Part shown: one piece after another, positions 1-12,733 of the stretch
Layout of the letters: every line of letters starts with the position of its first letter
Position numbering within the stretch: position 1 is the stretch's first letter
Source of the DNA: a virus
Virus genome (UHGV): UHGV-0125529
Reading direction: 5' to 3' (one strand)
DNA length: 12,733 nt
Notes under the pieces: model-generated
What the model was told of the DNA's origin: nothing
The model's input: only the letters and a program-made list of their open reading frames with translations
Databases searched by the model: none
Made by a program: the position numbers and the translations under genes

Positions 1-60
1 CTCCGTGTATTCACTCGTTGGAATGAATACACAGTGCAGTGTTTATTCTGTTGTTTATGC

Positions 61-86
61 CAAAAATAAAGGCCGATTATGCGGCC
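61..86 (-). terminator. Rho-independent terminator at the end of the leftward N operon gene
   Basis: Hairpin GGCCG(71-75)/CGGCC(82-86) with a 6-nt loop that contains the stop codon of CDS 77..700; on the minus strand it is followed by TTTATTTTTG (reverse complement of 61-70). Confidence 0.55.
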
Positions 87-700
87 TCGGAAGGAAGTCC
101 AATCATCTTATTCAAATCTTCTACCCGTAAAGCAGGAAGTGCTGCACTTGCTTTATCTGCTTCTTTTGGTAGCAACTCTTTGCTTTCAGGCCAAACTTCA
201 ATAAGTCGCTTAACTGTTGTGACTGAGTTCAAAGCAGCCCATACGTTTGATTCTATATCCTTTTTCCTGGCTTCAAGTTTTTGTTGCAATGCGCAGATTT
301 CATCAAACCTTTTTGTTATTTTGTGTTCTGCGTCAAACATGCATTTATCTTTGTCGGGGGTAGGGAGCAATATATCTTCACCGTTGCCGTCTTTTCCGTA
401 TGAATGCCAGCCAACCCTTCTTCCAGATACAGTCAGATAAATCGAACATGAACTGACATCGCATGAGTAAAATGAACATCCCAGCTTTTGAAGTTCCTCA
501 CTTGCAGCCATTAACTTTGATGCCAGCTGGTCCACTTCTTCGGTTTTCTTTTTCCCGCCAAACGCAATAACTCTGGCGTCAAGTGCAAGCTGGTTCTTTA
601 ACTTTGTTACTTCTTCAAGTTCAGTGAACACCCCGGACTTAATTAAAGCGTTACGAGCGATTTCCTCTTTCATTCTCGTAGTTAAGCGGATTGATGACAT
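77..700 (-). CDS. Hypothetical protein, 207 aa, first gene downstream of N in the leftward operon
   Basis: Long ORF; preferred start is the ATG at 700 (MSSIRLTTRMKEEIARN...) with RBS AGAGGA 6 nt upstream on the minus strand; the track ORF begins 20 codons earlier at an alternative start. No family recognised. Sits where lambda carries ral/sieB/kil-type early-left accessory genes. Confidence 0.6.
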   Translation of the reverse strand: MSSIRLTTRMKEEIARNALIKSGVFTELEEVTKLKNQLALDARVIAFGGKKKTEEVDQLASKLMAASEELQKLGCSFYSCDVSSCSIYLTVSGRRVGWHSYGKDGNGEDILLPTPDKDKCMFDAEHKITKRFDEICALQQKLEARKKDIESNVWAALNSVTTVKRLIEVWPESKELLPKEADKASAALPALRVEDLNKMIGLPSEAA

Positions 701-761
701 ATTAATTCCTCTCAAATAAGTGGTTTGCTGCCTAATTTCATTTTCTGGCGACCAACACAAG

Positions 762-1145
762 TCATCTTGCTGTCAGTTGTTTGGATTTACGGTAGCCTGC
801 AGCGTAAATGGCTACGTTTGGAAGACATACACCAGTTTCTGGTTGCTTATGTCCAAACTCATTCGCGTACACAATGGCCGCTCGCTCCAGATTGCGTCTG
901 TATTCTTTCTGTTGCCAGATCACGTCCTGTGCCATGAACTTAATTGGCTTAGCGTCTTCTATGCGCTCAGGCGTTTCGTGAGTACCTTTAGCCTGAATCT
1001 GCGCTCTGCTTAGAGTAGGGCGGTGTAATACTTCTGAACTTATTGCTTCTTCGCGGGCCAGCACGCCGTTAGCTAATGCCTTTGCCTTTAAACGCTCACG
1101 ACGACGAGAACGTGAATTGCCTTTGAACTGAGTTCTGCGTGTCAT
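762..1145 (-). CDS. N: Antitermination protein N (P22 gp24 / N-like)
   Basis: Preferred start ATG at 1145 with RBS GGAGG 6 nt upstream (track ORF extended to 1211). N-terminal arginine-rich motif GNSRSRRRERLKAKALA, and C-terminus ...LPNVAIYAAGYRKSKQLTAR closely resembling my recollection of the P22 N C-terminus (...LPGVALYAAGHRKSKQITAR). Leftward orientation and position relative to the repressor match lambdoid N. Confidence 0.8.
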   Translation of the reverse strand: MTRRTQFKGNSRSRRRERLKAKALANGVLAREEAISSEVLHRPTLSRAQIQAKGTHETPERIEDAKPIKFMAQDVIWQQKEYRRNLERAAIVYANEFGHKQPETGVCLPNVAIYAAGYRKSKQLTAR

Positions 1146-1274
1146 ATGGAACCTCCTGATGAACTTTGGCGGTGAATACAGCCGGGCGACTAACTCCGGT
1201 CGCGTAATCATTGCAAAGCGCCTCCGCCGAGAAGGTTAGCTTCTGCATTCACCCCAAAGTTCACTTTGGTTATT

Positions 1275-1289
1275 GCGCTTTGTCAGCGC
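1275..1289 (-). promoter_or_regulatory. nutL boxB RNA hairpin (P22 type)
   Basis: Minus-strand sequence GCGCTGACAAAGCGC (5-bp stem GCGCT/AGCGC, loop GACAA), about 130 nt upstream of the N start and downstream of the PL candidate; matches the P22-type boxB as I remember it. No convincing boxA found. Confidence 0.6.
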
Positions 1290-1358
1290 CGTAGATTCAT
1301 ATTCGAATCGTTGTATATTCACCGCCCTGGTGAGTAGTGCGTCCTGCTGATGACGATA

Positions 1359-1399
1359 ATAATGAACCAATAGTTCGACATTATCAAGAACTATTGGTA
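1359..1399 (-). promoter_or_regulatory. Candidate PL promoter with overlapping OL operators
   Basis: Minus strand: -35 TTGATA (plus 1382-1387), 17-bp spacer, -10 CATTAT (plus 1359-1364). Overlapped by a perfect inverted repeat ACCAATAGTTC (1366-1376) / GAACTATTGGT (1388-1398); the two 11-bp AAC-N5-GTT palindromes are centred about 24 bp apart, the same spacing and half-site pattern as the OR sites. Confidence 0.4.
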
Positions 1400-1570
1400 C
1401 GAATTTTGGTGATTTATTAACTCTACGAAGTATGATTCTGATATATAAGGAAATTTATTTTTGAAAATGTGGCTGATGAAGGTTATGCGGCAGGGATCAG
1501 AACTGCATGGTTTAGCGAGTTACATCAATAAATACAATTGGTTATGTGTTTTTAGGTGGGGGATCGAGAG

Positions 1571-1599
1571 GCAAATAAAACCCGGCTCGGTGGCCGGGG
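1571..1599 (-). terminator. Rho-independent terminator ending the cI/ORF-1612..2637 transcript (tIMM-like)
   Basis: GC-rich hairpin CCCGGC(1581-1586)/GCCGGG(1593-1598) with a 6-nt loop; on the minus strand it is followed by TTTTATTTGC. Lies immediately downstream of the stop of CDS 1612..2637 and upstream of the PL candidate. Confidence 0.6.
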
Positions 1600-1611
1600 T
1601 TAGATTTTCTG

Positions 1612-2637
1612 TTACGGGCGAGTGATGGTTGATGCGTTTCCGTTTTCTATTACACCTGCTCGTATCGTGTAGCTTCCCAAGATTTTTACTGTCCTGTTTT
1701 CTTTCATTGCATCAAACAGTATGGCGATCTCGTCTTTATCATCTATGAACGACGTGTCCACCGAAACAGGGAAACTGTCTTCACTAGATGGTTCGCGGCA
1801 GCTTAGGGTTATCTTTTCCGCAGTACGCTTGATTCCATCAATGACTAATTCAAGGTTTCTTTCTTCTTTTTTTGCTTTTTCGATAGGGTTCTTGATTAGT
1901 TCGTGGATTTCTTTGTTAGACAGTTCAACTGTGCTTGCGCCTGATATGACAATTTTGTCAGCATCAGACGCGCCTTTTAATACCCCTGTATACGCTTTTG
2001 CAGTATGCTCTTGAATCCCTTCGGCGCGCTCTACTGCATCTATGCCCGCTTTAGCTCTAATCGCCTCAAGCATTCCGTCCCTTAATATCGTCATGCGCTC
2101 GTTTTCTGATTTAATCTTGGCTTCTTCGAGCTTTGTTTCTTCTTGCTTGACTTCTACTTCGGCTTTTTTCTCTAAGTATGATGTACCAACCCATGCACCG
2201 CCTATAACGGTGACAGCAAACAAGAAGCATAATGTTTTTTGGCTAGGACTCATACCGTGTGTTACCTTCTCAAAGGCTTTACCGAATGCTTCAAAAAGCT
2301 CTGTTAATGCAGCAAGTATATCAGTACAACCTTCATTAATGGTAAAGATGATCTCTGCTTCCTCTTTATCTTTACCAGTTAACCTTTGAAGGTTGTCAGT
2401 TTTATATTTTATTAGTGTGAAAACTTTATAAATTTCAGTCTGAAATTCGCATAAACCCTGAGCTAGAGGAGATGGAAGCGTTCCGTTGTAGCGAGAAGGA
2501 TCACCATAAATCTTAAAATTCACATTATTGAAGAGGTCTAACTTGATCCTGTCGATAGTGATCTCTTCGCCACCATCTAACCTTGCAAACAAAGATTCAA
2601 TGTCGTCCAGACTTGAAACATTAATAATATCTTTCAT
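1612..2637 (-). CDS. Uncharacterised single-pass membrane protein in the rexAB-equivalent locus (candidate lysogen-expressed exclusion/defence protein)
   Basis: 341-aa ORF with ATG at 2637 and RBS AAGGTG 5 nt upstream. One central hydrophobic segment (TLCFLFAVTVIGGAWVGTSYL, about aa 135-155) followed by a charged, probably coiled-coil stretch (EKKAEVEVKQEETKLEEAKIKSENER...). Visibly AT-rich relative to the flanking cI and N. Same strand as and directly downstream of cI, terminated before PL. No family recognised. Confidence 0.7.
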   Translation of the reverse strand: MKDIINVSSLDDIESLFARLDGGEEITIDRIKLDLFNNVNFKIYGDPSRYNGTLPSPLAQGLCEFQTEIYKVFTLIKYKTDNLQRLTGKDKEEAEIIFTINEGCTDILAALTELFEAFGKAFEKVTHGMSPSQKTLCFLFAVTVIGGAWVGTSYLEKKAEVEVKQEETKLEEAKIKSENERMTILRDGMLEAIRAKAGIDAVERAEGIQEHTAKAYTGVLKGASDADKIVISGASTVELSNKEIHELIKNPIEKAKKEERNLELVIDGIKRTAEKITLSCREPSSEDSFPVSVDTSFIDDKDEIAILFDAMKENRTVKILGSYTIRAGVIENGNASTITRP

Positions 2638-2717
2638 TACAACACCTTCGGCACAACCTTGCTAGTTAAATTAGTGATTATAAAAATTGGATACTTACCA
2701 GCTATGTGACGATGAAG

Positions 2718-3425
2718 TCACGAACTTTTCAGCCACTCCCTTGCCTCGATGTCATCCAGATGGCGAGATTGCTTCAGAATACCAGCCACATACTCCACCT
2801 TTGCTACTTGATGATAAGGCAACGTTATTGGCCTGTGGTCTTGGTTGATGCTTGTAAATTGGTATTCTCCATCTCTGTCATAGCCAAGAACCTTAATCAT
2901 GTTGTGTCCTTCAACGGTTCTGACAAACACCTCATCACCCGGGAATACTTTGGTGTTAGGCTCAATGAGTACATATTCTCCTGATTTTATTCTGGGCCAC
3001 ATGCTGTCTCCTTTCACACGAAGGCCAAAGGCATCTGGATCATCGCTATAAATTTTGAGCCACCCATCGCGCTCTTCGGTCATCTCGATGGCACCATCAA
3101 CACCAAGAATTGCCTCACCAACCACGCGCACTAACCCTTTTTTTAATTTGCCAACAAATGAAAGAGTATCTTCATCATTCGCTCCATTTAACGAAGTGCC
3201 GTGCTGAAGCCAAACAACATCAACGTTTAGAAATTTCGCAAGCGCATTCATTTTTTCCTGACGCGGTAAAGACTCAGCATTAAACCATTTGCTAACGCCT
3301 TTGGACGAAAGAGAAAGGGCACGGGCTATAGCCATTCCCCTACCATGTTCATCAAGACCAGCTTCTTTACAGGCTTGCGCTAGCCGCTGGGCGAATTCTT
3401 TGCGCACTTTTTCATTCTGAACCAT
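2718..3425 (-). CDS. cI: CI-like prophage repressor (N-terminal HTH, C-terminal S24/LexA-type peptidase domain)
   Basis: 235 aa; N-terminal HTH (GMAIARALSLSSKGVSKW); C-terminal VKGDSMWP motif typical of the S24 peptidase catalytic serine with a downstream lysine; divergent from the cro-like gene across a 78-bp operator region. Confidence 0.85.
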   Translation of the reverse strand: MVQNEKVRKEFAQRLAQACKEAGLDEHGRGMAIARALSLSSKGVSKWFNAESLPRQEKMNALAKFLNVDVVWLQHGTSLNGANDEDTLSFVGKLKKGLVRVVGEAILGVDGAIEMTEERDGWLKIYSDDPDAFGLRVKGDSMWPRIKSGEYVLIEPNTKVFPGDEVFVRTVEGHNMIKVLGYDRDGEYQFTSINQDHRPITLPYHQVAKVEYVAGILKQSRHLDDIEAREWLKSS

Positions 3426-3489
3426 GAGTACGATACTAAAGCACTTGCAAAAACTTTCAGTTCAATCATAATGCGTACTGAAAGTACGA
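3424..3489. promoter_or_regulatory. OR operator cluster: three palindromic sites about 24 bp apart
   Basis: Sites AGTACGATACT (3427-3437), AACTTTCAGTT (3451-3461) and the perfect 15-bp palindrome CGTACTGAAAGTACG (3474-3488); centres near 3432, 3456 and 3481. Located between the divergent cI and cro starts, the classic OR3-OR2-OR1 layout. Confidence 0.5.
3445..3472 (+). promoter_or_regulatory. Candidate PR promoter
   Basis: -35 TTGCAA (3445-3450), 16-bp spacer, -10 CATAAT (3467-3472); the predicted start site falls on the perfect palindrome at 3474-3488. Confidence 0.5.
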
Positions 3490-3503
3490 AAAAGGATATC
3501 CCT

Positions 3504-3731
3504 ATGCAAAATCTTGATGAGCCGATTAAAGGTGTCGGCATCCCTGAAGTTGCGAAGGCTTGTGGAGTTAGCGAAAGGGCTGTCTATAAGTGGCTCAAAA
3601 ACGGCTTCCTCCCTAAGACTGAGTTTTTTGGGAAAACGAAATACGCATCAAAAATCGAAGAGATTTCTGGTGGCAAATATCAAGCAAGCGAAATGCTTGA
3701 AATAAGCAAAAAGAACCTTCTGGCTGCATAA
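3504..3731 (+). CDS. cro: Cro-like HTH DNA-binding protein
   Basis: 75 aa from ATG 3504 (MQNLDEPIKG...), RBS AAAGGA 7 nt upstream; HTH segment IPEVAKACGVSERAVYKWLKNG. The in-frame ATG at 3471 lies inside the predicted PR -10 and is probably not used. Confidence 0.7.
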   Translation: MQNLDEPIKGVGIPEVAKACGVSERAVYKWLKNGFLPKTEFFGKTKYASKIEEISGGKYQASEMLEISKKNLLAA

Positions 3732-3769
3732 GTAACACCGCTATTTTCACAATGGACATTCGTCCTACG

Positions 3770-3784
3770 TCGCTGACAAAGCGA
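3770..3784 (+). promoter_or_regulatory. nutR boxB-like hairpin
   Basis: TCGCTGACAAAGCGA: same loop (GACAA) and near-identical stem to the nutL boxB, located between cro and cII. A weak boxA-like CGCTATTTT lies at about 3739-3747, but spacing to boxB is longer than in lambda. Confidence 0.5.
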
Positions 3785-3869
3785 GCCCCAAGATATCTGA
3801 CCAACTAAGGCCATATGCGTTTCCACGCATACCTTTCAACTAACTATTCACTATTGGAAATATTAAGAA

Positions 3870-4166
3870 ATGACACAAACAAGTTACAGCAAACTATCCC
3901 AGCGCGACGTTGATCGCGCAGAAACGGATTTACTCATCAACCTGTCAACGCTTACCCAGCGCGGTCTGGCAAAGATGATTGGCTGTCATGAATCGAAGAT
4001 AAGCAGAACGGACTGGAGATTTATTGCTTCGGTCCTGTGTGCTTTCGGAATGGCATCAGACATCAGTCCGATTAGCAGGGCTTTTAAGTATGCGCTTGAT
4101 GGAATCACCAATAAAAAACGCCCGGCGGCAACCGAGCGTTCTGATCAAATACAAATGGAATTTTAA
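3870..4166 (+). CDS. cII: CII transcriptional activator
   Basis: 98 aa; C-terminus ...ITNKKRPAATERSDQIQMEF is almost identical to the lambda CII C-terminus as I remember it (...TNKKRPAATERSEQIQMEF); weak RBS, as in lambda cII. Confidence 0.85.
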   Translation: MTQTSYSKLSQRDVDRAETDLLINLSTLTQRGLAKMIGCHESKISRTDWRFIASVLCAFGMASDISPISRAFKYALDGITNKKRPAATERSDQIQMEF

Positions 4167-4188
4167 CAACATCCAACGAGGTAATTAT

Positions 4189-4332
4189 ATGCGAAAAACG
4201 CAGGAAAATAAACGCGTTAATCACCGAAAAGATGTGCTACGTGACCAGTTTTATCAGGGAGTTAATCCAGCAATAGCTGTGCCACTGAGAGAAATACTTA
4301 ACAGGTACAAAACTTCGGAGAAGTCAAAATGA
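4189..4332 (+). CDS. Small basic hypothetical protein (47 aa) translationally coupled to the initiator gene
   Basis: ATG at 4189 with RBS GAGG 7 nt upstream; its TGA stop overlaps the ATG of the next gene (ATGA at 4329-4332). Product MRKTQENKRVNHRKDVLRDQFYQGVNPAIAVPLREILNRYKTSEKSK. No homolog recognised. Confidence 0.4.
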   Translation: MRKTQENKRVNHRKDVLRDQFYQGVNPAIAVPLREILNRYKTSEKSK

Positions 4333-5126
4333 GCATGAATCTTATGGCTAAGGCCATGAATATAAAGGTTGGCAACCCACTGAGAAAACTGGTTCTGATT
4401 AAACTTGCCGATAACGCCAATGATAATGGCGAATGCTGGCCTTCATATCAACATGTCGCTGACCAGTGTGAGGTGAGCAGATCGACAGTAAAAAGTCACA
4501 TTAGGGCACTGGAAGAGATGGGTCTTTTGAAAAGGGAATGCAGAAGAAAAGGAGAGCTTAACCAGTCAAACGTTTTTTATCTGACGCTGGATAATGCACA
4601 ACAAATCCCACCAGAATCAGGTGGGGCAGGAGCTGCCCGGGGTGGGTCAGGAGCTGCCCGGGGTGGGGCAGGAGCTGCCCTAGGGGGTGGGGCAGGAGCT
4701 GCCCCCAGAACCTATCACTCTTTTGAACCAGTCAATGAACCTAAAAACATTATGTTCGAACATGTCCGAACGGAGTGGGAAAAAACTCCTGACCGTCACG
4801 AAGAAACCGACAAGGCATTCGAGGAAATATTCTGGTGTGCAGGCATGCGGAAAGCCGGGAAGAAAAACGCAGCTTCAGCATTCAGAACACAGTTCAGGGA
4901 ATGGCGTAAAACTACCAGGGGTACGGCAAGCGAGTTTGCCACGATGCTGGCAGAAGACATCGCATGCAGGAATGGTAAGCAGTTCGGATTCGACAGGTTG
5001 TTACCATCGAGCTACCTGAACGGTCAACGCTGGAACGACGAGAAGCCAGAAACTATTCAACCACAATCCAAACCATCATCCGCAATCACCGTATCGAAAA
5101 CTGGCTACGTGTTTTTCGACAGGTGA
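4329..5126 (+). CDS. Replication initiator, lambda O-like in organisation (iteron-containing)
   Basis: 265 aa, RBS GGAGAAG upstream; N-terminal winged-helix/HTH-like region (...YQHVADQCEVSRSTVKSHIRALEEMGLLKRE); the iteron array lies inside the coding region and encodes a Gly/Ala-rich linker, as ori-lambda does within O. Confidence 0.75.
   Translation: MSMNLMAKAMNIKVGNPLRKLVLIKLADNANDNGECWPSYQHVADQCEVSRSTVKSHIRALEEMGLLKRECRRKGELNQSNVFYLTLDNAQQIPPESGGAGAARGGSGAARGGAGAALGGGAGAAPRTYHSFEPVNEPKNIMFEHVRTEWEKTPDRHEETDKAFEEIFWCAGMRKAGKKNAASAFRTQFREWRKTTRGTASEFATMLAEDIACRNGKQFGFDRLLPSSYLNGQRWNDEKPETIQPQSKPSSAITVSKTGYVFFDR
4620..4704. repeat. Four direct iterons, each with an internal palindrome (candidate replication origin)
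   Basis: Units GGTGGGGCAGGAGCTGCCC at 4620-4638, 4641-4659 (one substitution, GGGTCAG), 4662-4680 and 4686-4704; period 21, 21 and 24 bp; each contains GGGCAG-GAG-CTGCCC; followed by a more AT-rich stretch. Confidence 0.8.
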
Positions 5127-5236
5127 ACCATGAAATCCAGAATCAAATCGTTACTTATCGCTGGCTATAACCATGGCTGGCTTAGTTCTGCATTCGTTGA
5201 GTTCTGGTTTAACCGTCTCGATCTGAGGTCAGCGTA

Positions 5237-7117
5237 ATGACTCCAAGTGAACTGAGCGACCTGCTTTGGGCGCAGGTTGACAGGGTGGCTCCGCACCTGT
5301 TGCCAAACGGCAAGAAAGAGGGGCATGAGTGGGTTGCCGGTAACGTTAACGGTGACAAGGGAAACAGCCTTAAGGTCAACCTTAGCGGCAAGAAAAAATG
5401 GGCTGATTTCGCTGAGGGAGACGGCGGTGACATGCTTGATTTGTGGATGGCATGTCGTGGAATTAACCTGCATCAGGCTATGCAGGAAGCGAAAGCATTT
5501 CTCGGTATCAAGGATGACGATCACCATTTCGATGCCAGACGTGAGAAGAAATTCTCCAGACCTGATCGCAAGAAAATCGCCAGTTACGTTACCAGAACAG
5601 AATCCCATCTTGAGTACCTGCAATCGCGTGGCATATCGCCAGAAGTCGTAAAGCGCTACGAGGTTGTCAGCGGCAAGGTGTGGAATGGAGAGCGGGAACT
5701 GGATGCTCTGGTGCTTCCGTACAAACGCGATGGTGAGTTGTTGCAGGTCAAGCGAATCAGCACTGAGCGCCCGGACGGGAAGAAAGTCATTATGGCAGAA
5801 GGTGATTGCGAACCTTGTCTGTTCGGATGGCAGGCTCTGGACGCTGGCGTGAGGGCGGTTGTACTTTGCGAAGGCGAAATTGATTGTATGAGCTATGCGC
5901 AATACGGCATCTCGGCGTTATCCGTGCCGTTTGGTGGCGGGAAAGGCGCTAAGCAGCAGTGGATTGAGTTTGAGTATCACAACCTCGACAGGTTTGAGGA
6001 AATATTCATCTCGATGGATGTTGATGATGTTGGTCGTGAAGCCGCAAGGGAAATCGCAAGCCGACTCGGTGAACATCGTTGCCGTCTTGTTACTCTGCCG
6101 TACAAAGACATCAACGAATGCCTGATGAACGGTGTTACCGAGGATGAAATCTGGCAGTACATCGGCACGGCATCCTACTTCGATCCTGAAGAACTCTACA
6201 GCGCGCGAGAGTTTTACCAGGACACTATCAACGCTTTCTACGGCAAGCAGCAGTATCTGTTTAATCCACCGTGGGAATCTCTGGCAGATAAATTCCAGTT
6301 CCGTGAGGCCGAGTTGACGCTGGTCAATGGTGTGAACGGTCACGGAAAAACGGAGGTTGTCGGGCATATGGCACTTGAGGCAATGCGTCAGGGTGTGAAG
6401 ACGTGCATCGCGTCACTTGAGCTGAAGCCTGGTATTCTCCTTAAGCGCCTTACCCGTCAGGCGACGTGCTGCAAGATGCCGCCAGTGCTGGAAATTGACT
6501 CTGCATTTAAATTTTATGACGAAAGACTTTGGGTGTTTGGCCTGACCGGAACGGCGAAAGCCGACAGGCTGATCGAAATATTCGACTACGCTCGCCGCCG
6601 ATACGGTATCCAGTTATTCATCATCGACAGCCTGATGAAATGTGGCATAGGCGACGATGACTATAACGGGCAGAAGGCGTTTGTTGACTCGATTTGCGAC
6701 TTCAAAAACAAAACAAACTCCCACGTCATTCTCGTTACTCACTCGCGAAAAGGAGACAGCGAAGAAAAACCAACCGGGAAAATGGACGTAAAAGGCTCTG
6801 GAGCGATAACAGACCTGACAGACAACCTTTTTATCATCTGGCGTAACAAGGCTCGCGAGAGAGCGTTACAGAGAGTTCAAAGCGGTGAACAGATGTCAGA
6901 GAAGGACGAACAGCTACTGGTGTCTCCGGCATCTGTTTTGTTGCTTGAAAAACAACGTAACGGTGAAGGTTGGGAAGGTGGTATCCCGTTGTTCCTTGAC
7001 GAGCAATCGCACCAGTTCCTGCAACTTGAATCAGGATCTCCATATAGCTACATCGCCAATATGCCGAAATCGGAATATGACGAGGCGTGGAGACAGGAAA
7101 ACGTGACGGAGTATTAA
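5237..7117 (+). CDS. Bifunctional DNA primase/helicase, T7 gp4-like (TOPRIM primase plus DnaB/RecA-fold helicase)
   Basis: 626 aa. TOPRIM-region motifs align with T7 gp4 as I remember it (EGEIDCMS; FISMDVDDVGREAA; LPYKDINECLMNG). Helicase part has Walker A GVNGHGKT, IIDSL (Walker B-like) and later motifs (ILVTHSRKG; KGSGAITDLTDNLFIIWRN). The N-terminal region lacks the Cys4 zinc finger. Confidence 0.9.
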   Translation: MTPSELSDLLWAQVDRVAPHLLPNGKKEGHEWVAGNVNGDKGNSLKVNLSGKKKWADFAEGDGGDMLDLWMACRGINLHQAMQEAKAFLGIKDDDHHFDARREKKFSRPDRKKIASYVTRTESHLEYLQSRGISPEVVKRYEVVSGKVWNGERELDALVLPYKRDGELLQVKRISTERPDGKKVIMAEGDCEPCLFGWQALDAGVRAVVLCEGEIDCMSYAQYGISALSVPFGGGKGAKQQWIEFEYHNLDRFEEIFISMDVDDVGREAAREIASRLGEHRCRLVTLPYKDINECLMNGVTEDEIWQYIGTASYFDPEELYSAREFYQDTINAFYGKQQYLFNPPWESLADKFQFREAELTLVNGVNGHGKTEVVGHMALEAMRQGVKTCIASLELKPGILLKRLTRQATCCKMPPVLEIDSAFKFYDERLWVFGLTGTAKADRLIEIFDYARRRYGIQLFIIDSLMKCGIGDDDYNGQKAFVDSICDFKNKTNSHVILVTHSRKGDSEEKPTGKMDVKGSGAITDLTDNLFIIWRNKARERALQRVQSGEQMSEKDEQLLVSPASVLLLEKQRNGEGWEGGIPLFLDEQSHQFLQLESGSPYSYIANMPKSEYDEAWRQENVTEY

Positions 7118-7146
7118 ATGACCATCTACATCACTGAGCTTGTAAC

Positions 7147-7178
7147 AGGCCTGCTGGTAATCGCAGGCCTTTTTATTT
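7147..7178 (+). terminator. Rho-independent terminator after the replication genes (tR2-like position)
   Basis: Hairpin AGGCCTGC(7147-7154)/GCAGGCCT(7163-7170) with an 8-nt loop, followed by TTTTATTT. Confidence 0.55.
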
Positions 7179-7206
7179 GGGGAAGAGTAATTGGAGGCTT
7201 TAAGAA

Positions 7207-7422
7207 ATGAGTACGATAGCTGAGCTTGTCAGGGCTAATTTTCGTGAAGAGTTGGTGCGTTGGTATCGGTATCGTTCATCGTCCAGTTTGCCGCTTGATG
7301 AGTTGTATGAGCATTCACCTGCCGCACGACGCTATCCGCGTGACCGTGTTCTTCGACGGTTGTTCAAACTCAACAATGAGTTTCAGCGCAACAGAATTAT
7401 CCGGAGTCTGGATTTAAAGTGA
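7207..7422 (+). CDS. Hypothetical nin-region protein (71 aa)
   Basis: ATG at 7207 with RBS GGAGG about 9 nt upstream; no family recognised. Confidence 0.5.
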   Translation: MSTIAELVRANFREELVRWYRYRSSSSLPLDELYEHSPAARRYPRDRVLRRLFKLNNEFQRNRIIRSLDLK

Positions 7423-7432
7423 AGGAGTGAGC

Positions 7433-7615
7433 ATGAGCGAGCAAATATTCAGAGAGATTAAGCCACGGTTTTATCGCAAGGTAAGGGTAGTTTATCAGGA
7501 CGAAAACAAGACCTGTGCATACGCCATTCATAATGGTCGGTGGTCAGTGTTCGACACCAAAAACTTCGAGAAGAACTTCGAGAGGATTAAGGGTGATGAG
7601 GAAACTAACATTTGA
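7433..7615 (+). CDS. Hypothetical nin-region protein (60 aa)
   Basis: ATG at 7433 with RBS GAAGGAG 5 nt upstream (track lists a GTG start at 7427); its 3' end overlaps the ninB start by 20 nt. Confidence 0.45.
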   Translation: MSEQIFREIKPRFYRKVRVVYQDENKTCAYAIHNGRWSVFDTKNFEKNFERIKGDEETNI

Positions 7616-8012
7616 ACTAAGAAGCCCCATCCATCAGCAGAACGCCATTCAAGCTATCCAGCAAATTCTTCCAGACCCAACCAAACCAATCGTAGTAACC
7701 ATTCAGGAACGCAACCGCAGCATTCGGCAAAATGCACGCCTTCACGCGATGCTATCTGAAATAAGTAAGAAGGCTACATATCATGGAAAAGCAAGAAATA
7801 TTGAGTTTTGGAAGGGGTTATTCGTTTCTGGTTGGCAGATTGCAACCAACCAGCACCCTGAGATTATATCAGGGTTAGAAGGTGAGCTAATAAACATCAG
7901 AGAGAGTACGGCGACTCTATCTGTAAAAAAAATATCCGAAATAATGGACTACATAGAAGCATATTGTGCCATGAACTCAATTAATCTTAGCGAATGGAGG
8001 AATTATGATTGA
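7596..8012 (+). CDS. ninB: NinB (Orf-family recombination protein)
   Basis: 138 aa from ATG 7596 (MRKLTFELRSPIHQQNAIQAIQQILPDPTKPIVVTIQERNRS...), closely matching my recollection of the lambda NinB N-terminus; the track ORF has a spurious N-terminal extension from 7515. Confidence 0.85.
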   Translation: MRKLTFELRSPIHQQNAIQAIQQILPDPTKPIVVTIQERNRSIRQNARLHAMLSEISKKATYHGKARNIEFWKGLFVSGWQIATNQHPEIISGLEGELINIRESTATLSVKKISEIMDYIEAYCAMNSINLSEWRNYD

Positions 8013-8607
8013 GGTTTGGGTAGATATCGAAGGAATTCCATTTTATCAGGTTAGCAATAAAGGAAATTTCAGGTCTATTACGAGGGAAATTACAGTAACA
8101 TCAACCAGACAGAGGCCATATAAGAAAATAATTAATGGCACTAGCGTAAAACCATTCAAGTGCAAGTCGACAGGATATCTTCAAATAAAGGTATACGGTA
8201 AGAAATACAGCACCCACAGGATAGTTGCGAAAGCATTCTGTACAGGGTTCTGTGATGGCTTGGTAGTTAATCACAAAAATGGGCAAAGAGATGACAATAG
8301 GGCTGAAAACCTTGAATGGGTATCACATTCTGAAAACTCAAAGCACGGATATAAACAAAATGGAAGAATACCTATATCGCTAGGTAAATTTAGTGGTGAT
8401 CATCCTGCCAGTAAAGCTGTTATTTCTACTGACATGAAAACTGGGGAGGAGGTTTATTATGAAGCAGCTATGGATGCTGTCAGAGAAGGATTTGATAGTT
8501 CGTCAATTAGTCGTTGCTGTAATGGCGAAAGCTCATATCACAAAGGAAGATTCTGGCGATTTGCAAATGAAACAATGAAAGCAAGATGGGGAGACAGGGC
8601 GGCATGA
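8005..8607 (+). CDS. HNH homing endonuclease (NUMOD4-like N-terminal motif, HNH core, C-terminal DNA-binding region)
   Basis: 200 aa; RBS GGAGG 4 nt before the ATG; N-terminal [20 protein letters not shown] (NUMOD4-like); HNH core HRIVAKAF...[25 protein letters not shown]; overlaps the ninB stop by 8 nt. Confidence 0.85.
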
Positions 8608-8753
8608 GGCGACAGCGACGAAGTTTCACCGACATCATCTGCGAAAACTGCAAATACCTTCCAACGAAACGCTCCAGAAATTTAGTTTTGAGCAGAATAC
8701 CATGATGTCAGTGCAAGGGGGAGAAAGTCTCCTCATTATCTGATTCGCAATTT

Positions 8754-8799
8754 ACGTGCATATTTAAATATTGCACGTTACAACGTGCATGTGTATAAT
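8754..8799 (+). promoter_or_regulatory. Sigma70-type promoter with overlapping palindromic operator for the downstream moron gene
   Basis: -35 TTGCAC (8771-8776), 17-bp spacer, consensus -10 TATAAT (8794-8799) with TG dinucleotides immediately upstream. Three copies of the ACGTGCA/TGCACGT motif in alternating orientation (8754-8760, 8772-8778, 8783-8789), including the palindrome TGCACGTT-AC-AACGTGCA across the -35 and spacer. Confidence 0.5.
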
Positions 8800-8830
8800 T
8801 GACTTATCAATCACAACACGAGATATGCTC

Positions 8831-9838
8831 ATGAAAAATGATGATGTTAGTGGGAAGGCCAAAGGCGGTAAGGCACGCGCGGCAAAAATGACAGCAGAGC
8901 AAAGAAAAGAATCCTCAAGAAAGGCTGTTGCCGCAAAAAAAGAAAAAGCTTTATTGCCCGTATCTGCGAATGAGGGAAAGTTAAAGATCGGTGATGCGGA
9001 ATTAGATGTCGCGGTTCTCGAAAATGGACGGCGTATCATATCACAAGCTTCTGTTTTTAAAGCATTTGGCCGACCACAAAGAGGGGGTAGAGCACCTCAA
9101 GAAGAGGGGGTGATCAATATGCCCGCTTTTATGGATGCTGCAAACCTTAAAAAATATATAAATCAAGATGTTATGGGTGTGATCAATAAGGTCAAATACA
9201 AGACGATTACTGGCTCCGTCCAGGAAGGTTATGACGCATCCATAATACCTCTTGTCTGCGATGTTTATTTAAAGGCAAGAGAGGCAGGCGCTATCACCAG
9301 GCCAAACCAGTTAGAGACAGCCAAGAAAGCTGAAATTCTGGTGCGCTCATTAGCTAAAGTCGGAATAATAGCGCTTGTTGATGAAGCGACGGGGTACCAG
9401 CGAGATAGAGAAAAAGATGCGCTCGCCAAAATACTCGAGGCCTTTGTCGCAAAGGAAATTCAACCTTATATTACAACATTTCCTGCTGATTATTATGAAG
9501 AGCTTTTCAGGTTAAGGGGCTTAGAATACCCGCCGGAAAATCCCCGCTTCCGGCCTCAGTATTTTGGCGTTTTGACAAATGATATCGTCTACAAGAGATT
9601 GGCACCAAACATCCTTGAGGAGCTTAAAAAGCAGAACGTAAAGGCCTCAAAAGGTACAAAGTTGTTTCAGGGGCTGACGCCAAATATTGGATATCAAAAA
9701 TTAAGAGAGCATCTGTCATCAACCGTTACGATTATGAAGCTATCTAACGACTATTCAGATTTTATTGCAAAAATGAATCGCCTGCATCCAAGGTTTGAGG
9801 ATGTGAAAACAGACGAACTGGATGATTCAGACAAGTAA
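8831..9838 (+). CDS. Hypothetical protein (335 aa) with lysine-rich N-terminal tail; moron-like cargo gene
   Basis: ATG at 8831 (alternative 8825), weak RBS; N-terminal basic tail KAKGGKARAAKMTAEQRKESSRKAVAAKKEK; has its own promoter/operator upstream and a terminator pair downstream. Family not recognised with confidence. Confidence 0.7.
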   Translation: MKNDDVSGKAKGGKARAAKMTAEQRKESSRKAVAAKKEKALLPVSANEGKLKIGDAELDVAVLENGRRIISQASVFKAFGRPQRGGRAPQEEGVINMPAFMDAANLKKYINQDVMGVINKVKYKTITGSVQEGYDASIIPLVCDVYLKAREAGAITRPNQLETAKKAEILVRSLAKVGIIALVDEATGYQRDREKDALAKILEAFVAKEIQPYITTFPADYYEELFRLRGLEYPPENPRFRPQYFGVLTNDIVYKRLAPNILEELKKQNVKASKGTKLFQGLTPNIGYQKLREHLSSTVTIMKLSNDYSDFIAKMNRLHPRFEDVKTDELDDSDK

Positions 9839-9845
9839 CAGTAAC

Positions 9846-9866
9846 CCACCTTCAGGTGGTTTTTTT
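9846..9866 (+). terminator. Rho-independent terminator
   Basis: CCACCT / AGGTGG stem around a short loop, followed by TTTTTTT, 8 nt after the stop of CDS 8831..9838. Confidence 0.7.
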
Positions 9867-9933
9867 GTACAAATCCTTCAGCGTAAGTTTACCTCCTTCA
9901 CTGCATTACTACTGACCATTGACAACTTAACAA

Positions 9934-9959
9934 ACCCAGCTTCGGCTGGGTTTTTTATT
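9934..9959 (+). terminator. Second rho-independent terminator
   Basis: ACCCAGC-TTCG-GCTGGGT hairpin (tetraloop) followed by TTTTTTATT. Confidence 0.7.
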
Positions 9960-9989
9960 GGTGAATTTTCAATATGAGAGGACATGACA

Positions 9990-10712
9990 ATGAACGAGCT
10001 GATAAATAGCAACGTCATCAAAATGACTAGCATTGAAATCGCTGAGCTTACAGGTAAGCGTCATGACAATGTGAAACGAACCATCGAAACGCTGGTTAAA
10101 AGTGGAGTTATCCGGCTTCCTCAAATTGAGGTTTCCGAAAGAATCAATAACTTAGGGTTCAATGTTCAGTACGAGCATTACGTCTTCGAAGGCGAAAAAG
10201 GTAAGCGCGACAGCATTATTGTCGTCGCTCAGTTGTCGCCGGAATTCACCGCTCGTCTTGTTGACCGTTGGCGAGAACTCGAAGGGGCAACCGCGAAAAT
10301 ACCACAAACCTTTTCTGAGGCATTGCGCCTTGCGGCCGACCTTGAAGACCAGAAGGCTGAACTGGAGAAACAGCTTGCTCTCGCAGCACCTAAAGTTGAG
10401 TTTGCCGATCGCGTTGGCGAGGCCAGCGGAATTTTGATTGGAAACTATGCAAAGGTTGTTGGAATTGGTCCAAACAAACTGTTTGCGTGGATGCGCGATC
10501 ACAAAATCCTTATTACTTCAGGTGCCCGGCGCAATGTGCCAATGCAGGAATATATGGAGCGCGGCTATTTCACAGTGAAAGAAACAGCGGTCAACACAAA
10601 TCACGGAATACAGATATCGTTCACCACAAAAATCACCGGGCGTGGTCAACAGTGGCTGACCAGAAAGCTGCTCGATAACGGAATGCTGAAAGTAACAGGG
10701 GAGGCTGCTTAA
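9990..10712 (+). CDS. Rha-family phage regulatory protein with C-terminal KilAC/antirepressor-like domain
   Basis: RBS GAGAGG 8 nt upstream of ATG 9990; N-terminal [24 protein letters not shown] is typical of the Rha N-terminal domain; C-terminal half (...[24 protein letters not shown]...) resembles KilAC/antirepressor domains. Confidence 0.75.
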
Positions 10713-11317
10713 TGGCTAAACCAGCGCGAAGGAAATGCAAAATATGCAAAGAATGGTTTCACCCGGCATTCTCAAATCAGTGGTGGTGCTGCCCGGAACA
10801 CGGAACTCAATTAGCACTCGAACGACGAAGTAAAGAACGCGAAAAAGCGGAAAAAGCAGCAGAGAAGAAACGACGACGAGAGGAGCAGAAACAGAAAGAT
10901 AAACTGAAGATTCGAAAACTCGCCTTAAAGCCCCGCAGTTACTGGATTAAACAAGCCCAACAAGCCGTAAACGCCTTCATCAGAGAAAGAGACCGCGACT
11001 TACCATGTATCTCGTGCGGAACGCTCACGTCTGCTCAGTGGGATGCCGGACATTACCGGACAACTGCTGCGGCACCTCAACTCCGATTTGATGAACGCAA
11101 TATTCACAAGCAATGCGTGGTGTGCAACCAGCACAAAAGCGGAAATCTCGTTCCGTATCGCGTCGAACTGATTAGCCGCATCGGGCAGGAAGCAGTAGAT
11201 GAAATCGAATCAAACCATAACCGCCATCGCTGGACTGTCGAAGAGTGCAGGGCCATCAAGGCAGAGTACCAACAGAAACTCAAAGACCTGCGAAACAGCA
11301 GAAGTGAGGCCGCATGA
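10712..11317 (+). CDS. ninG: NinG / Rap recombination-associated Holliday-junction endonuclease
   Basis: 201 aa, near-identical over most of its length to my recollection of lambda NinG (Rap), including the Cys-rich motifs ([10 protein letters not shown]...CCPEHG; CISCG...CVVCN); start overlaps the upstream stop (TAATG). Confidence 0.9.
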
Positions 11318-11360
11318 CGCTCTCAGTAAAAACCATTCCAGATAACAAGGGAGAAGTCGC

Positions 11361-11879
11361 ATGGGCATAAGAGAACTAAACCTCACCAAAGAACAGCACG
11401 ATTGGCTGAATGGCTGGCTTGAACTGTGGGGCGCATGGGTTTATTCAGGTCGTCTGGAAAAGCGCATGAGCAGCGTAATAGCGAAGTTCATGGAGAGCGT
11501 AGAGCCGGGAAGAGTTATGACAAGACCAATGTGTAATGATGATGATGGAATGTTGATTTCTCAGGTCGTCGATTCCGTCATGTACATTGACAAGAAAGCC
11601 TTTGGCATCCTCCTCAGCTACTACGCTCATGGTTCATCTAAGAGAGCAATTGCATCCTACTATCACGCGACTGCAAAGCCACGCAAGATGTGTGGACGCG
11701 GTGGCGAGGGATGGAGAAAACCTTCACTGGCAACCTGTAGAAACGAAATTGACGATATCCTGAAAGCGTCATTATTTGTTTTGTACCAACCAATGCAAAA
11801 TGCTTTCAAAATGCGTAAACGTGTTGAGAAAGTTAAGCATGTTGCTGTTAAAAGCCTTGACATGCAATTAGCCATTTAG
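11361..11879 (+). CDS. Q: Late-gene antiterminator Q (phage 82 / QuuD-like family)
   Basis: 172 aa, RBS GGGAGAAG; motifs WGAW near the N-terminus and RPMCNDDDGMLISQVVD resemble the Q family found in phage 82 and E. coli QuuD; sits after ninG and before a strong promoter, as Q does in lambdoid phages. Confidence 0.8.
   Translation: MGIRELNLTKEQHDWLNGWLELWGAWVYSGRLEKRMSSVIAKFMESVEPGRVMTRPMCNDDDGMLISQVVDSVMYIDKKAFGILLSYYAHGSSKRAIASYYHATAKPRKMCGRGGEGWRKPSLATCRNEIDDILKASLFVLYQPMQNAFKMRKRVEKVKHVAVKSLDMQLAI
11847..11876 (+). promoter_or_regulatory. Candidate late promoter PR' (Q-utilisation region)
   Basis: Perfect -35 TTGACA (11847-11852), 18-bp spacer, -10 CATAAT (11871-11876), overlapping the 3' end of Q. 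Confidence 0.5.
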
Positions 11880-11896
11880 CCATAATTAGAGGGTAA

Positions 11897-11939
11897 GCTG
11901 CCGTTAGTGACTCTTAAGTTGCAACGGTGGCTTTTTTTA
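11897..11939 (+). terminator. Candidate tR'-like terminator, about 50 nt downstream of the PR' start
   Basis: Imperfect hairpin GCTGCCGTT ... AACGGTGGC (includes G-U pairs and a large loop) followed by TTTTTTTAT. Confidence 0.4.
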
Positions 11940-11942
11940 TTT

Positions 11943-12017
11943 GGGTCAGTCGTATAAAGGTCATTACGGAAGGCTGTTAACCTTCTTATCGTGGTTCGAT
12001 TCCCGCTACCCGCTCCA
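11943..12017 (+). tRNA. tRNA-like element, probably degenerate (Asn-type GUU anticodon arm)
   Basis: Perfect anticodon stem-loop GAAGG-CTGTTAA-CCTTC (11969-11985; U33, anticodon GTT, A37); D-arm-like CGTA-N10-TACG (11951-11968); T-loop consensus GGTTCGATTCC (11993-12003) followed at canonical distance by CCA (12015-12017). The T-stem and acceptor stem pair poorly, so it may be a pseudo-tRNA. Confidence 0.3.
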
Positions 12018-12030
12018 GATTTATTATCAG

Positions 12031-12053
12031 GCTCGCTTCGGCGGGCTTTTTTT
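12031..12053 (+). terminator. Rho-independent terminator
   Basis: GCTCGC-TTCG-GCGGGC hairpin (one G-U pair) followed by TTTTTTT. Confidence 0.65.
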
Positions 12054-12185
12054 GTATCTGCGCCACGCCCGGCGCATATCAACCACAGAGCCTTTCGGGG
12101 GTGAGCTTACGGAGTGGTCAGTGTGACTTTCTCTGTGGGCAGATCGCTCCCGGGCGTTGGCTCACCCACCCAAAGGAACGTCACG

Positions 12186-12617
12186 ATGTTTGGTATTTTT
12201 GGTAAAAAAGCCCGCCGAGCGGCAGTGGAAATTAAAAAGTTTGAGAAACGTGATCTGGCACAGGCGGTTATTAATGCTGCCTATCTGGTGGCCTATGCAG
12301 ATGGTGAATGTGAGGCTTCAGAGAAAGCGAAGATCGAGCAGGTCTTGCGTAACCAGCCTGCGTTGTCCGCGTTTACGTCAGAAATTAATGCGATTAGCGC
12401 AACCATTATCGGTCAGCTGGATACGAACTTTAAAATTGGTCGTCGAGCGGCGTTACGTGAGATCGAGGATGTGAAACACGATACGCGTGAAGCGGAAGAC
12501 GTGCTGGATGTGGCGGTGGCCATTGCCGAAGCAGACGGCGAAATAGAGCCGGAAGAGCGCAAGGTGCTGGAAGAGATTGCCGGTGTCCTGGGCCTTCGTC
12601 TGGAGAATCATCTGTGA
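12186..12617 (+). CDS. TerB-like (tellurite-resistance TerB family) domain protein
   Basis: 143 aa from ATG 12186 (RBS AAGGAA 8 nt upstream; track lists a GTG start at 12114). Two acidic repeats of the TerB type (LVAYADGECEASEKAKIEQ and AIAEADGEIEPEERKVLEEI). GC-richer than the phage genes upstream. Confidence 0.65.
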   Translation: MFGIFGKKARRAAVEIKKFEKRDLAQAVINAAYLVAYADGECEASEKAKIEQVLRNQPALSAFTSEINAISATIIGQLDTNFKIGRRAALREIEDVKHDTREAEDVLDVAVAIAEADGEIEPEERKVLEEIAGVLGLRLENHL

Positions 12618-12625
12618 CGGTAAAA

Positions 12626-12733
12626 ATGCGTCTGGCTGTGGTTGCGCTCCTGCTGTTTCTGGTGGTGATGGTGGACTTCAGCAGCCGGATAATGTCAGTG
12701 CTGGCTGACGGTGTGCTGGTGGCGGGGGGAGGG
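12626..12733 (+). CDS. Membrane or secreted protein, 5' fragment only (runs off the window)
   Basis: ATG at 12626 eight nt after the TerB-like stop; strongly hydrophobic N-terminus MRLAVVALLLFLVVMVDF...; weak RBS; truncated by the window end. Confidence 0.35.
   Translation, partial: MRLAVVALLLFLVVMVDFSSRIMSVLADGVLVAGGG

Follow-up and report, generated by a model that had tools for sequence, protein, structure and literature searches.

The last part of virus genome UHGV-0125529 analysed here, a single stretch of 12,733 nt that we refer to as the window, carries the tciA and tciB genes behind a structured leader RNA. Comparison with near-identical DNA shows that positions 12050-12733 belong to an ordinary lambdoid prophage, the antiterminator Q of which is of the phage-21 type, and form the start of its late operon; the window simply ends inside tciB. 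We consider it probable that tciAB is an accessory cassette of this late operon that depends on Q for its transcription and is held back at the level of translation by its leader; its products may form a TerB module tethered to the membrane. The gene pair itself is already known and annotated, and is a common phage accessory cassette. The leader RNA is widespread and, apparently, undescribed.

The window represents the early-right/nin region of a lambdoid prophage, closing with NinG (10712-11317) and Q, both confirmed by Pfam; of the late operon, Q, the late promoter PR′ and the terminator tR′ were confirmed in the window itself, and the lysis genes were seen in relatives. A first-pass annotation of this DNA had stated that the late region does not follow Q. 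It does, starting with an accessory cassette, and the holin, endolysin, Rz and structural genes that the annotation proposed to look for downstream are present in two near-identical relatives. Escherichia coli SCU-104 is 100% identical to positions 11300-12726, and its tciB is followed by approximately 1 kb of noncoding DNA, a SASA-family (NanS-p-like) esterase, DUF1378, DUF826, a holin, a lysozyme and an Rz-type lysis protein, and further downstream by terminase, capsid, portal and tail genes, the whole prophage being bounded by an integrase adjoining mlrA. E. coli LZSFT34, which is 99.9% identical, the closest relative overall and the only listed record to match the whole window (1-12726), has the same order of esterase, lysis and structural genes on the same strand. 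In Escherichia phage JLK-2012, the record of which already names the pair tciA/tciB, the order is Q, tRNA-Asn/Thr/Gly, tciA, tciB, yjhS, S, R and Rz, and in vB_Apl-pPE4 tciAB directly adjoins a holin–holin–endolysin cluster. Because near-identical copies continue into esterase, lysis and structural genes, the pair can be assigned to the slot between Q and the lysis genes, best known as the 'stx' slot. The final 7 nt of the window (12727-12733, GGGAGGG) are unlike every close relative, all of which read GTGTGGTGG..., and are probably a contig-end or poly-G sequencing artefact, which would explain why the window stops inside tciB.

The same arrangement is found more widely. In the IMG/VR collection, 80 loci have a tciA gene whose product shares at least 97% identity with TciA of the window; tciB, sought by tblastn without the low-complexity filter, was present in 79 of them, and a holin or endolysin lay within 3-4.2 kb in 24 of the 27 loci that have at least 3.9 kb of downstream sequence. 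The Q type of the window was found in only 29 of the 80, and the cassette is therefore best regarded as a mosaic module. Of 5426 complete E. coli genomes, 790 (approximately 15%) carried at least 80% of the leader plus tciAB, and every occurrence of the cassette among the loci examined was in a phage context.

The transcriptional setting of the cassette is that of phage 21. The Q module (11348-12013) is 95-98% identical at the DNA level to those of Sf6, HF4s, the P22-like phage ST64T and phage L. The Sf6 record labels its own Q copy as similar to that of phage 21, and PR′ is homologous to an Sf6 feature annotated as 'nearly identical to phage 21 late promoter'. The tR′ hairpin (11895-11933) has a predicted free energy of −20.2 kcal/mol and is followed by U7. 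The second terminator of the first-pass annotation is likewise a recognizable intrinsic terminator, and terminators of differing sequence occupy the equivalent place before the leader in other phages. A consensus-only scan found no plus-strand promoter-like site between PR′ and tciA, PR′ being the sole such site nearby. With two terminators and no promoter-like site before tciA, transcription of tciAB is expected to be late, lytic and Q-dependent: only RNA polymerase that has been modified by Q, and so made resistant to termination, would reach the cassette past both terminators. As tciA homologues are also encoded by Machinavirus jumbo phages, which are virulent, and by N4-like, Vibrio and Pseudomonas phages, late lytic expression is likelier than lysogenic conversion. 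From its anatomy, tciAB looks like a Q-dependent late lytic function rather than a lysogenic-conversion moron. The features on which these statements depend are collected in Table 1.

Table 1. Features at the right-hand end of the window (positions are those of the whole window; SD, Shine–Dalgarno sequence)
Feature	Position	Strand	Description	Basis
Q	11361..11879	+	antiterminator, phage-21/Sf6/P22 type, 172 aa	Pfam Phage_antitermQ, E=1.3e-25
PR′	11857..11886	+	late promoter, TTGACA-18 nt-CATAAT, overlaps the 3′ end of Q	11/12 consensus positions
qut + tR′ region	11884..11940	+		coordinates carried over from Sf6 annotation
qut	11884-11932	+		Sf6 annotation transfer
tR′	11896-11940	+	terminator, phage-21 type	Sf6 annotation transfer
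Hybrid pseudo-tRNA	11943..12017	+	Asn/Gly	alignment with the JLK-2012 Asn-Thr-Gly array; Rfam tRNA, 32.6 bits
Second terminator	12029..12056	+	intrinsic, 8-bp stem, UUCG loop, U7; 5′ boundary of the cassette	terminator scan
Leader RNA	12057..12185	+	conserved, two predicted long-range tertiary pairings, ~130 nt	covariation, conservation
P1 hairpin	12059-12076		loop ACGCCC, 12065-12070	
P2	12083-12090 with 12131-12138		5′ strand CCACAGAG, after P1, pairs with CUCUGUGG in the apical loop	
SD helix	12091-12095 with 12172-12176		anti-SD CCUUU with AAAGG, plus two further pairs; SD AAAGGAA, 12172-12178	
Stem A	12099-12106 with 12160-12167			
Stem B	12110-12119 with 12142-12152			
A/B internal loop	12152-12157		GGGCGU, pairs with P1 loop ACGCCC	
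tciA	12186..12617	+	143-aa predicted cytoplasmic TerB-domain protein, two acidic ADGE...E motifs	Pfam TerB PF05099
tciB	12614..12733	+	DUF3927 (Pfam PF13064), codons 1-40 of 54, two hydrophobic segments	RefSeq annotation in identical DNA

The first of the two genes was correctly recognized as a TerB-family gene from the letters alone. TciA matches the Pfam TerB model with 59.8 bits (cutoff 24.4; E=3.9e-16, residues 26-138), Klebsiella pneumoniae TerB (PDB 2JXU) with E=6e-8 (residues 15-137) and PHROG 632 with E=3e-69. It is 99.3% identical to TciA of JLK-2012, 53% identical to that of P1, and 68-71% identical to TerB proteins of Erwinia and Salmonella jumbo phages; weaker homologues are encoded by N4-like, Vibrio and Pseudomonas phages, some of them strictly virulent. 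The two acidic motifs read AYADGEcEasE and AEADGEIEPEE, and residues D39/G40/E46 and D117/G118/E124 are invariant among the lambdoid, P1 and jumbo-phage homologues. Paired acidic motifs of this kind (Dxx..E) in TerB are thought to bind metal, and TciA has both of them.

The second gene, which the first-pass annotation had described as the start of a hydrophobic protein, begins at GTG 12614, overlaps the tciA stop codon (GTGA) and is cut by the end of the window; the overlap suggests that tciB is translationally coupled to tciA. Full-length TciB, 54 amino acids taken from DNA identical to the window, matches Pfam DUF3927 (E=4.8e-20) and PHROG 1470 ('TciB-like'), and is 44% identical to TciB of P1. 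Its two hydrophobic segments are flanked by basic residues and read as two transmembrane helices, and its conserved motifs 'VDFTS' and 'LADG' place one Asp in each segment. A DUF3927-like gene follows tciA in nearly all of the Enterobacterales loci examined (one locus, L213, is unclear; L numbers are our own locus labels). In Pseudomonas, a different small membrane protein of 67 amino acids takes the place of DUF3927 after the tciA homologue; these Pseudomonas homologues (L218-L226) also have another conserved hairpin leader (..CUGCACCUUGGCGACAGGGUGCAG..) approximately 70 nt upstream.

Between the second terminator and tciA lies the leader RNA, in which the small P1 hairpin precedes a long hairpin composed of the SD helix, stem A and stem B, and two long-range pairings connect the loops with distant strands. 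The leader is 84% identical in Klebsiella phages, the TciA proteins of which are only 43% identical, and the block can be taken as noncoding because an in-frame extension of tciA from a GTG is broken by a stop codon in those phages. We accordingly rejected the longer in-frame start at GTG 12114 (167 amino acids), as the reading frame is interrupted by a TGA in the Klebsiella variants and the covariation of the region is that of an RNA.

The fold is demonstrated by comparative analysis of leader variants gathered from IMG/VR, GTDB genomes and GenBank phages. Diverged leaders were handled with a covariance model (CM) and anchor-based scripts; MAFFT misaligned the stems. In a CM alignment of 16 type-I and jumbo-phage sequences, which misplaces P1 in three jumbo phages and so lowers the pair counts, 91-94% of cells were paired, compared with 39-47% when the partners were slid, and 13-14 pairs were changed on both sides, compared with 7-8±1.4 in shuffles, none of 500 shuffles being as high. 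For P2, the cross-class control was noisy (its 12 nt window took in GAGCC), and per-class inspection and a larger survey were used. Both tertiary pairings are kept in 150 of 165 unique anchor-selected candidate leaders, among which there are about 18 distinct P2 strands, 8 distinct loops and 12 distinct P1 stems. Jumbo phages have compensatory changes in P1 (CACAUC/GAUGUG or CUGUC/GACAG), in P2 (CCGUAGAG/CUCUACGG) and in stem B (GGAGUG/CACUCC). In type II and III paralogues, P2 takes the forms GAAAGU/ACUUUC, CGAGAG/CUCUCG, CCAAAGA/UCUUUGG, CACAGAA/UUCUGUG, CUCAGAA/UUCUGAG, CGAGACA/UGUCUCG and CCCCGAG/CUCGGGG, and the pairs formed between the P1 loop and the internal loop include UCGCAC/GUGCGA, UCUCAC/GUGAGA, UCGUAC/GUACGA, CGCUC/GAGCG and GGCUC/GAGCC. 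Covariation is thus seen in P1, P2, stem B, the loop–loop pairing and a flanking pair of the SD helix, which changes from G-C to A-U (11 versus 16 sequences).

The nested part of the fold lies no more than 2.4 kcal/mol from the minimum free energy (MFE) before either pseudoknot is counted. Two other pairings were considered and set aside. The single-sequence MFE pairing of GCUUACGGAG with CUCUGUGGGC is, by inspection, not conserved in the Klebsiella variants. A long-range 'P1' proposed by RNAalifold is half right: the jumbo-phage compensatory changes identify the stem as a local hairpin, only the loop of which pairs at long range. At the base of stem A, the run of G (GGGGGUGAGC) differs in length between loci, reaching 12 G, and there are T-to-G variants (L102, 696-833; L144, 1134-1272; L034; L110); this could be either a sequencing artefact or a real homopolymer polymorphism.

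The leader was not recognizable as a known RNA: searches of Rfam 15 with the window leader and with type II, type III and jumbo-phage variants gave no relevant match at E≤10, and no description of it was found in the literature, including searches for TerB with riboswitch and for antirepressor with RNA motif. The motif is also found before antirepressors (ANT/KilAC, P22_AR_N, KilA-N), Rha regulators, HNH_3 endonucleases, proteins with a tail-tip-like C-terminus, a 463-aa protein without a Pfam match and many proteins of unknown function, and one scan gave 60 distinct cargo N-termini among approximately 105 motif instances. Of the 186 unique copies of the motif, 149 are immediately preceded by a hairpin and a T-run; the jumbo-phage copies come after tRNA-Cys instead. 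The orientation and the spacing of the leader to the SD sequence and ATG are fixed in all instances. Within a single late region of LZSFT34 there are two clear copies, one before tciA (161.6 bits) and one before Rha (34.5 bits, E=5e-7), and a degenerate third before an HNH gene, which was spotted by eye (9.6 bits, E=0.52). As neither DLP12 nor Qin, both prophages of E. coli K-12, carries the motif, it has no tie to the K-12 small RNA literature.

Several observations on the distribution of the leader stand on their own. Paralogous copies were recorded in L398 (17350-17488 and 9649-9777), L091 (13782-13922), L087 (7089-7226), L229 (5479-5596) and L280 (4913-5049), and further copies precede unrelated genes at approximately 120 loci (L283-L397). 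In PPompW prophages, ISEc20, a member of the IS110 family, interrupts the leader at about nt 45 (for example, LC567818, 15683-15727; L187, 1146-1277), and it seems to have inserted into the leader repeatedly.

Our data are consistent with a model in which the translation of the cassette is gated a second time, downstream of Q. The long hairpin would be locked by the two tertiary pairings, and since its closing helix pairs CCUUU with the AAAGG of the SD sequence, the folded state is inferred to be an OFF state for translation. The lock might be opened by a generic ligand reporting on the state of the host, by a phage or host protein, by RNase III or self-cleavage, or through the kinetics of folding; a TerB-linked metabolite is unlikely as the ligand because the cargo genes are unrelated to one another. 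Tentatively, and with somewhat less than even confidence, we propose that the leader is the founding example of a new phage RNA class, either a riboswitch or protein-operated switch or a self-cleaving 'insulator' ribozyme. Mobile cassettes, both in late operons of temperate phages of enterobacteria and in jumbo-phage tRNA islands, would use it as a transferable lock on translation, and each would be insulated twice, by its terminator against transcription and by the RNA against translation.

There are precedents for such a lock. Translational OFF riboswitches such as SAM-II and preQ1-II/III hold the SD sequence in a closing helix or pseudoknot. The leader resembles them in its compact pseudoknotted fold, with tertiary structure predicted to stabilize the SD pairing, and differs from them in lacking an Rfam match and in preceding functionally unrelated genes, unlike the regulon of a metabolite riboswitch; of the properties of a riboswitch, the fold and the SD sequestration are supported, and the cargo genes are heterogeneous. 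In phage T4, hairpins in read-through transcripts hide the ribosome-binding site of dispensable or dangerous genes (mobE, I-TevI, e and soc), and the RNase III site of the λ N leader belongs to the same group of devices. The principle is shared, in that translation is limited to a particular phase or processing state, but the T4 hairpins are simple, whereas the leader described here is a 130-nt fold with two covarying tertiary pairings that is used by many unrelated genes and phages.

As regards the proteins, we propose that TciB inserts into the inner membrane as a two-helix hairpin with a conserved Asp in each predicted helix, and that TciA docks its acidic TerB domain, which may bind metals or other cations, at the cytoplasmic face. 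DjlA and YebE (DUF533) have a TerB-type domain at the cytoplasmic face of the inner membrane, and the two Tci proteins would rebuild this membrane-tethered arrangement in two parts. The likeness is one of outline: similarity of TciA to the NCBIfam DjlA model (E=8e-7; 28.9 bits against a cutoff of 162) and to Pfam DUF533 (E=4e-5; 23.6 bits against 29.6) is weak and below threshold, and in tciAB the anchor and the domain are separate polypeptides, predicted to be translationally coupled, with no J-domain. The pair may stabilize or monitor the state of the membrane and its ions late in infection, countering, for example, premature depolarization by colicins, abortive-infection systems or a superinfecting phage, and would not confer tellurite resistance on the lysogen. 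We hold this two-part role with low confidence.

A close counterpart of the cassette is the tciA-tciB-tciC locus of P1, which has the same pair in the same order as JLK-2012 and the window and, as in lambdoid and jumbo phages, sets it among phage tRNA genes. The P1 genes differ in having no structured leader (no CM match) and in lying near ban, outside any Q-controlled late operon. CRISPR interference in P1 scored all three tci genes as non-essential. No third gene is annotated after tciB in SCU-104, where no search aimed at a TciC homologue was made. By position, the cassette corresponds to the stx1/stx2 slot of Stx phages, which in 933W-type phages lies after Q, PR′, tR′ and phage tRNAs and before nanS-p/yjhS and S-R-Rz. 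Dependence on Q read-through would be common to both, but tciAB encodes no toxin and brings its own upstream terminator and SD-sequestering leader. The TerB protein of ter operons (terZABCDE) has the same domain as TciA; TciA, by comparison, stands alone with a 54-aa membrane partner, is phage-encoded and is apparently expressed late.

A number of points weigh against our interpretation. Continuity with the lysis genes is deduced from relatives, the window itself ending in tciB, and the consensus-only promoter scan could miss a weak or non-sigma-70 promoter. The five core pairs of the SD helix (CCUUU/AAAGG) are invariant, so that covariation in favour of SD sequestration comes from the flanking pair only, and P2 crosses stems A and B, so that these might form at different times, as alternative structures, instead of together as one pseudoknot. 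The approximately 60 unrelated cargo genes argue against a ligand tied to TerB. Lastly, no functional test of tciAB was found in the literature on tciA/tciB and DUF3927.

The alternative with the best remaining prospects concerns the leader, which might be a self-cleaving or RNase-processed 'insulator' that detaches the cargo mRNA from the tRNA or terminator RNA upstream and frees the SD sequence, rather than a switch operated by a ligand or protein. The compact fold with two tertiary pairings is more like small ribozymes than a simple operator, the approximately 60 unrelated cargo genes include HNH homing-type endonucleases, and the motif immediately follows tRNAs or terminators. In length, the A/B helix is one that RNase III can use, and the λ N leader is a precedent for the unmasking of an SD sequence by this enzyme. 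However, no known ribozyme model matches the leader and no cleavage site can be inferred from its sequence, and the closing helix itself contains the SD sequence, a feature of OFF-type riboswitches. We think this explanation unlikely, whilst allowing it a real chance.

The main rivals to a two-part membrane module are lysogenic conversion and anti-defence mimicry. According to the first, tciAB would be a classical lysogenic-conversion moron that provides tellurite or colicin resistance or phage exclusion in the manner of the ter operon. Papers on P1- and D6-like phage-plasmids treat the tci genes as possible morons of untested function, and there is speculation in the literature that the host might survive better with tciA/tciB. 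The names given to the genes in P1 and the PHROG category 'moron, auxiliary metabolic gene and host takeover' point the same way, as do the association of TerB, within ter operons, with tellurite resistance, colicin resistance and phage inhibition, and the frequency of the cassette in complete E. coli genomes. A classical moron has its own promoter upstream and a terminator downstream; tciAB has its terminators upstream and no promoter-like site, and its SD sequence would be sequestered by the leader. The terB-like gene is also on its own, with no terC, terD, terE or terZ near tciAB in SCU-104 or JLK-2012, and the pair therefore does not amount to a ter operon. Homologues occur in strictly lytic phages, which form no lysogens, and the operon has been lost in about half of one P1 subgroup. 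The first-pass annotation had offered a Q-dependent moron pair in the toxin/conversion slot as one possibility; an accessory pair does occupy the slot between Q and lysis, but the description as a classical moron does not survive, and we regard lysogenic conversion as distinctly unlikely.

The second rival holds that TciA and TciB act in counter-defence, with a free membrane TerB domain serving as a decoy or antagonist of Ter, Shango or Bunzi. Shango and Bunzi, two anti-phage systems with a suggested role in 'membrane surveillance', contain TerB domains, standalone TerB genes occur across unrelated virulent and temperate phages, and the cassette is positioned for late, lytic expression. Nevertheless, TciA has no meaningful match among the PADLOC defence-system models (the best, PDC-S48, has E=0.003), there is no experimental link, and simple mimicry would leave the conserved membrane partner unexplained. 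To this possibility we give a slightly smaller chance again.

It is very improbable that the 130-nt block is a DNA recombination linker, a module boundary or a mobile-element target without an RNA function. The block does mark mosaic junctions between unrelated upstream modules and unrelated cargo, and ISEc20 has inserted into it, but a patch of homology needs no pairing, whereas the five helices stay paired through compensatory changes among the many strand variants counted above, and orientation and spacing are constant.

Scarcely credible is the remaining proposal of the first-pass annotation, that the prophage is truncated after Q and that 12050-12733 is host chromosome or a cryptic remnant: the region is richer in G+C (54% against 45%, near the E. 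coli average) and no lysis gene lies inside the window, but the same DNA occurs at 99-100% identity within complete prophages that have lysis, terminase, capsid and tail genes and in sequenced phage genomes, nearly all of the long viral contigs (24 of 27) reach a holin or endolysin, close homologues are found in jumbo phages and P1, and the cassette, seen only in phage contexts, recombines with several Q types, all of which refutes truncation.

The rise in G+C after the second terminator noted by that annotation is itself real. Positions 12050-12733 are the GC-richest part of the window, with 54.2% G+C, a value that none of 241 windows of 684 nt (average 45.5±3.8%) reaches. The increase comes mainly from the noncoding leader (62%) and tciB, and tciA alone has 50.9%. 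The Chi site reported at 12712-12719 is misplaced by three bases, GCTGGTGG being located at 12715-12722. One copy was found against 0.22 expected, and at least one copy occurred in 39 of 200 shuffles; the sequence falls inside Leu-Val codons of tciB. The copy is no more than chance and carries no information, and a role for Chi here as a recombination hotspot was rejected on both grounds.

Between tR′ and the second terminator lies a hybrid pseudo-tRNA, the 5′ 52 nt of which derive from a phage tRNA-Asn(GUU) and the 3′ 23 nt from a tRNA-Gly(UCC), joined in their common GGTTCGA T-loop. From the alignment with the JLK-2012 array, it is the scar of a 159-bp deletion between two GGTTCGA T-loops that removed tRNA-Thr. 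A functional tRNA gene at this position was rejected: ARAGORN found no tRNA in the window, the acceptor stem has 3 of 7 pairs compared with 6 of 7 and 7 of 7 in the parent tRNAs, and the Rfam match reaches only 32.6 bits, with mismatched pairs, the element being fused from Asn and Gly genes. SCU-104 carries the same scar. In LZSFT34, an HNH endonuclease cassette takes the place of the pseudo-tRNA between tR′ and the tciA terminator (L398, 9775-10287) and, by eye, brings its own terminator and the degenerate leader copy mentioned above.

Two further observations concern the surroundings of tciAB. The pair lies within tRNA gene clusters in three unrelated phage lineages, lambdoid phages, P1 and Machinavirus (L002, 8593-9587; L205, 915-2785; L204, 976-3367; L206, 991-2228), and the tRNA neighbours are Asn, Thr and Gly in lambdoid phages, Asn and Thr upstream and Ile downstream in P1, and Trp and Cys upstream and Tyr, Gln, Ile and Met downstream in Machinavirus jumbo phages. 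The gap of approximately 1 kb between tciB and the esterase contains a tandem duplication with a period of approximately 484 nt (L001, 21515-22230). Positions 20500-22600 of L001 contain 11 terminator-like sites on both strands against 2.4 expected, several of the hairpins lying in this gap.

Overall, the answer to the truncation question is an ordinary one, and a false lead, that of host DNA and Chi, has been removed. The late lytic anatomy of tciAB contradicts the usual annotation of such genes as 'tellurite resistance' acquired by lysogenic conversion, and reframes which experiments are suited to a cassette carried by about 15% of complete E. coli genomes. The part that most deserves further attention is the undescribed structured leader that would lock tciAB and many other cassettes. 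Its presence before antirepressors is of note, as leaky expression of an antirepressor would induce prophages. If the proposed activity is correct, the leader would be a ready-made natural insulator part for synthetic biology, and if it is a regulated switch or ribozyme, it would represent a general means by which phages keep their cargo silent until the right moment.

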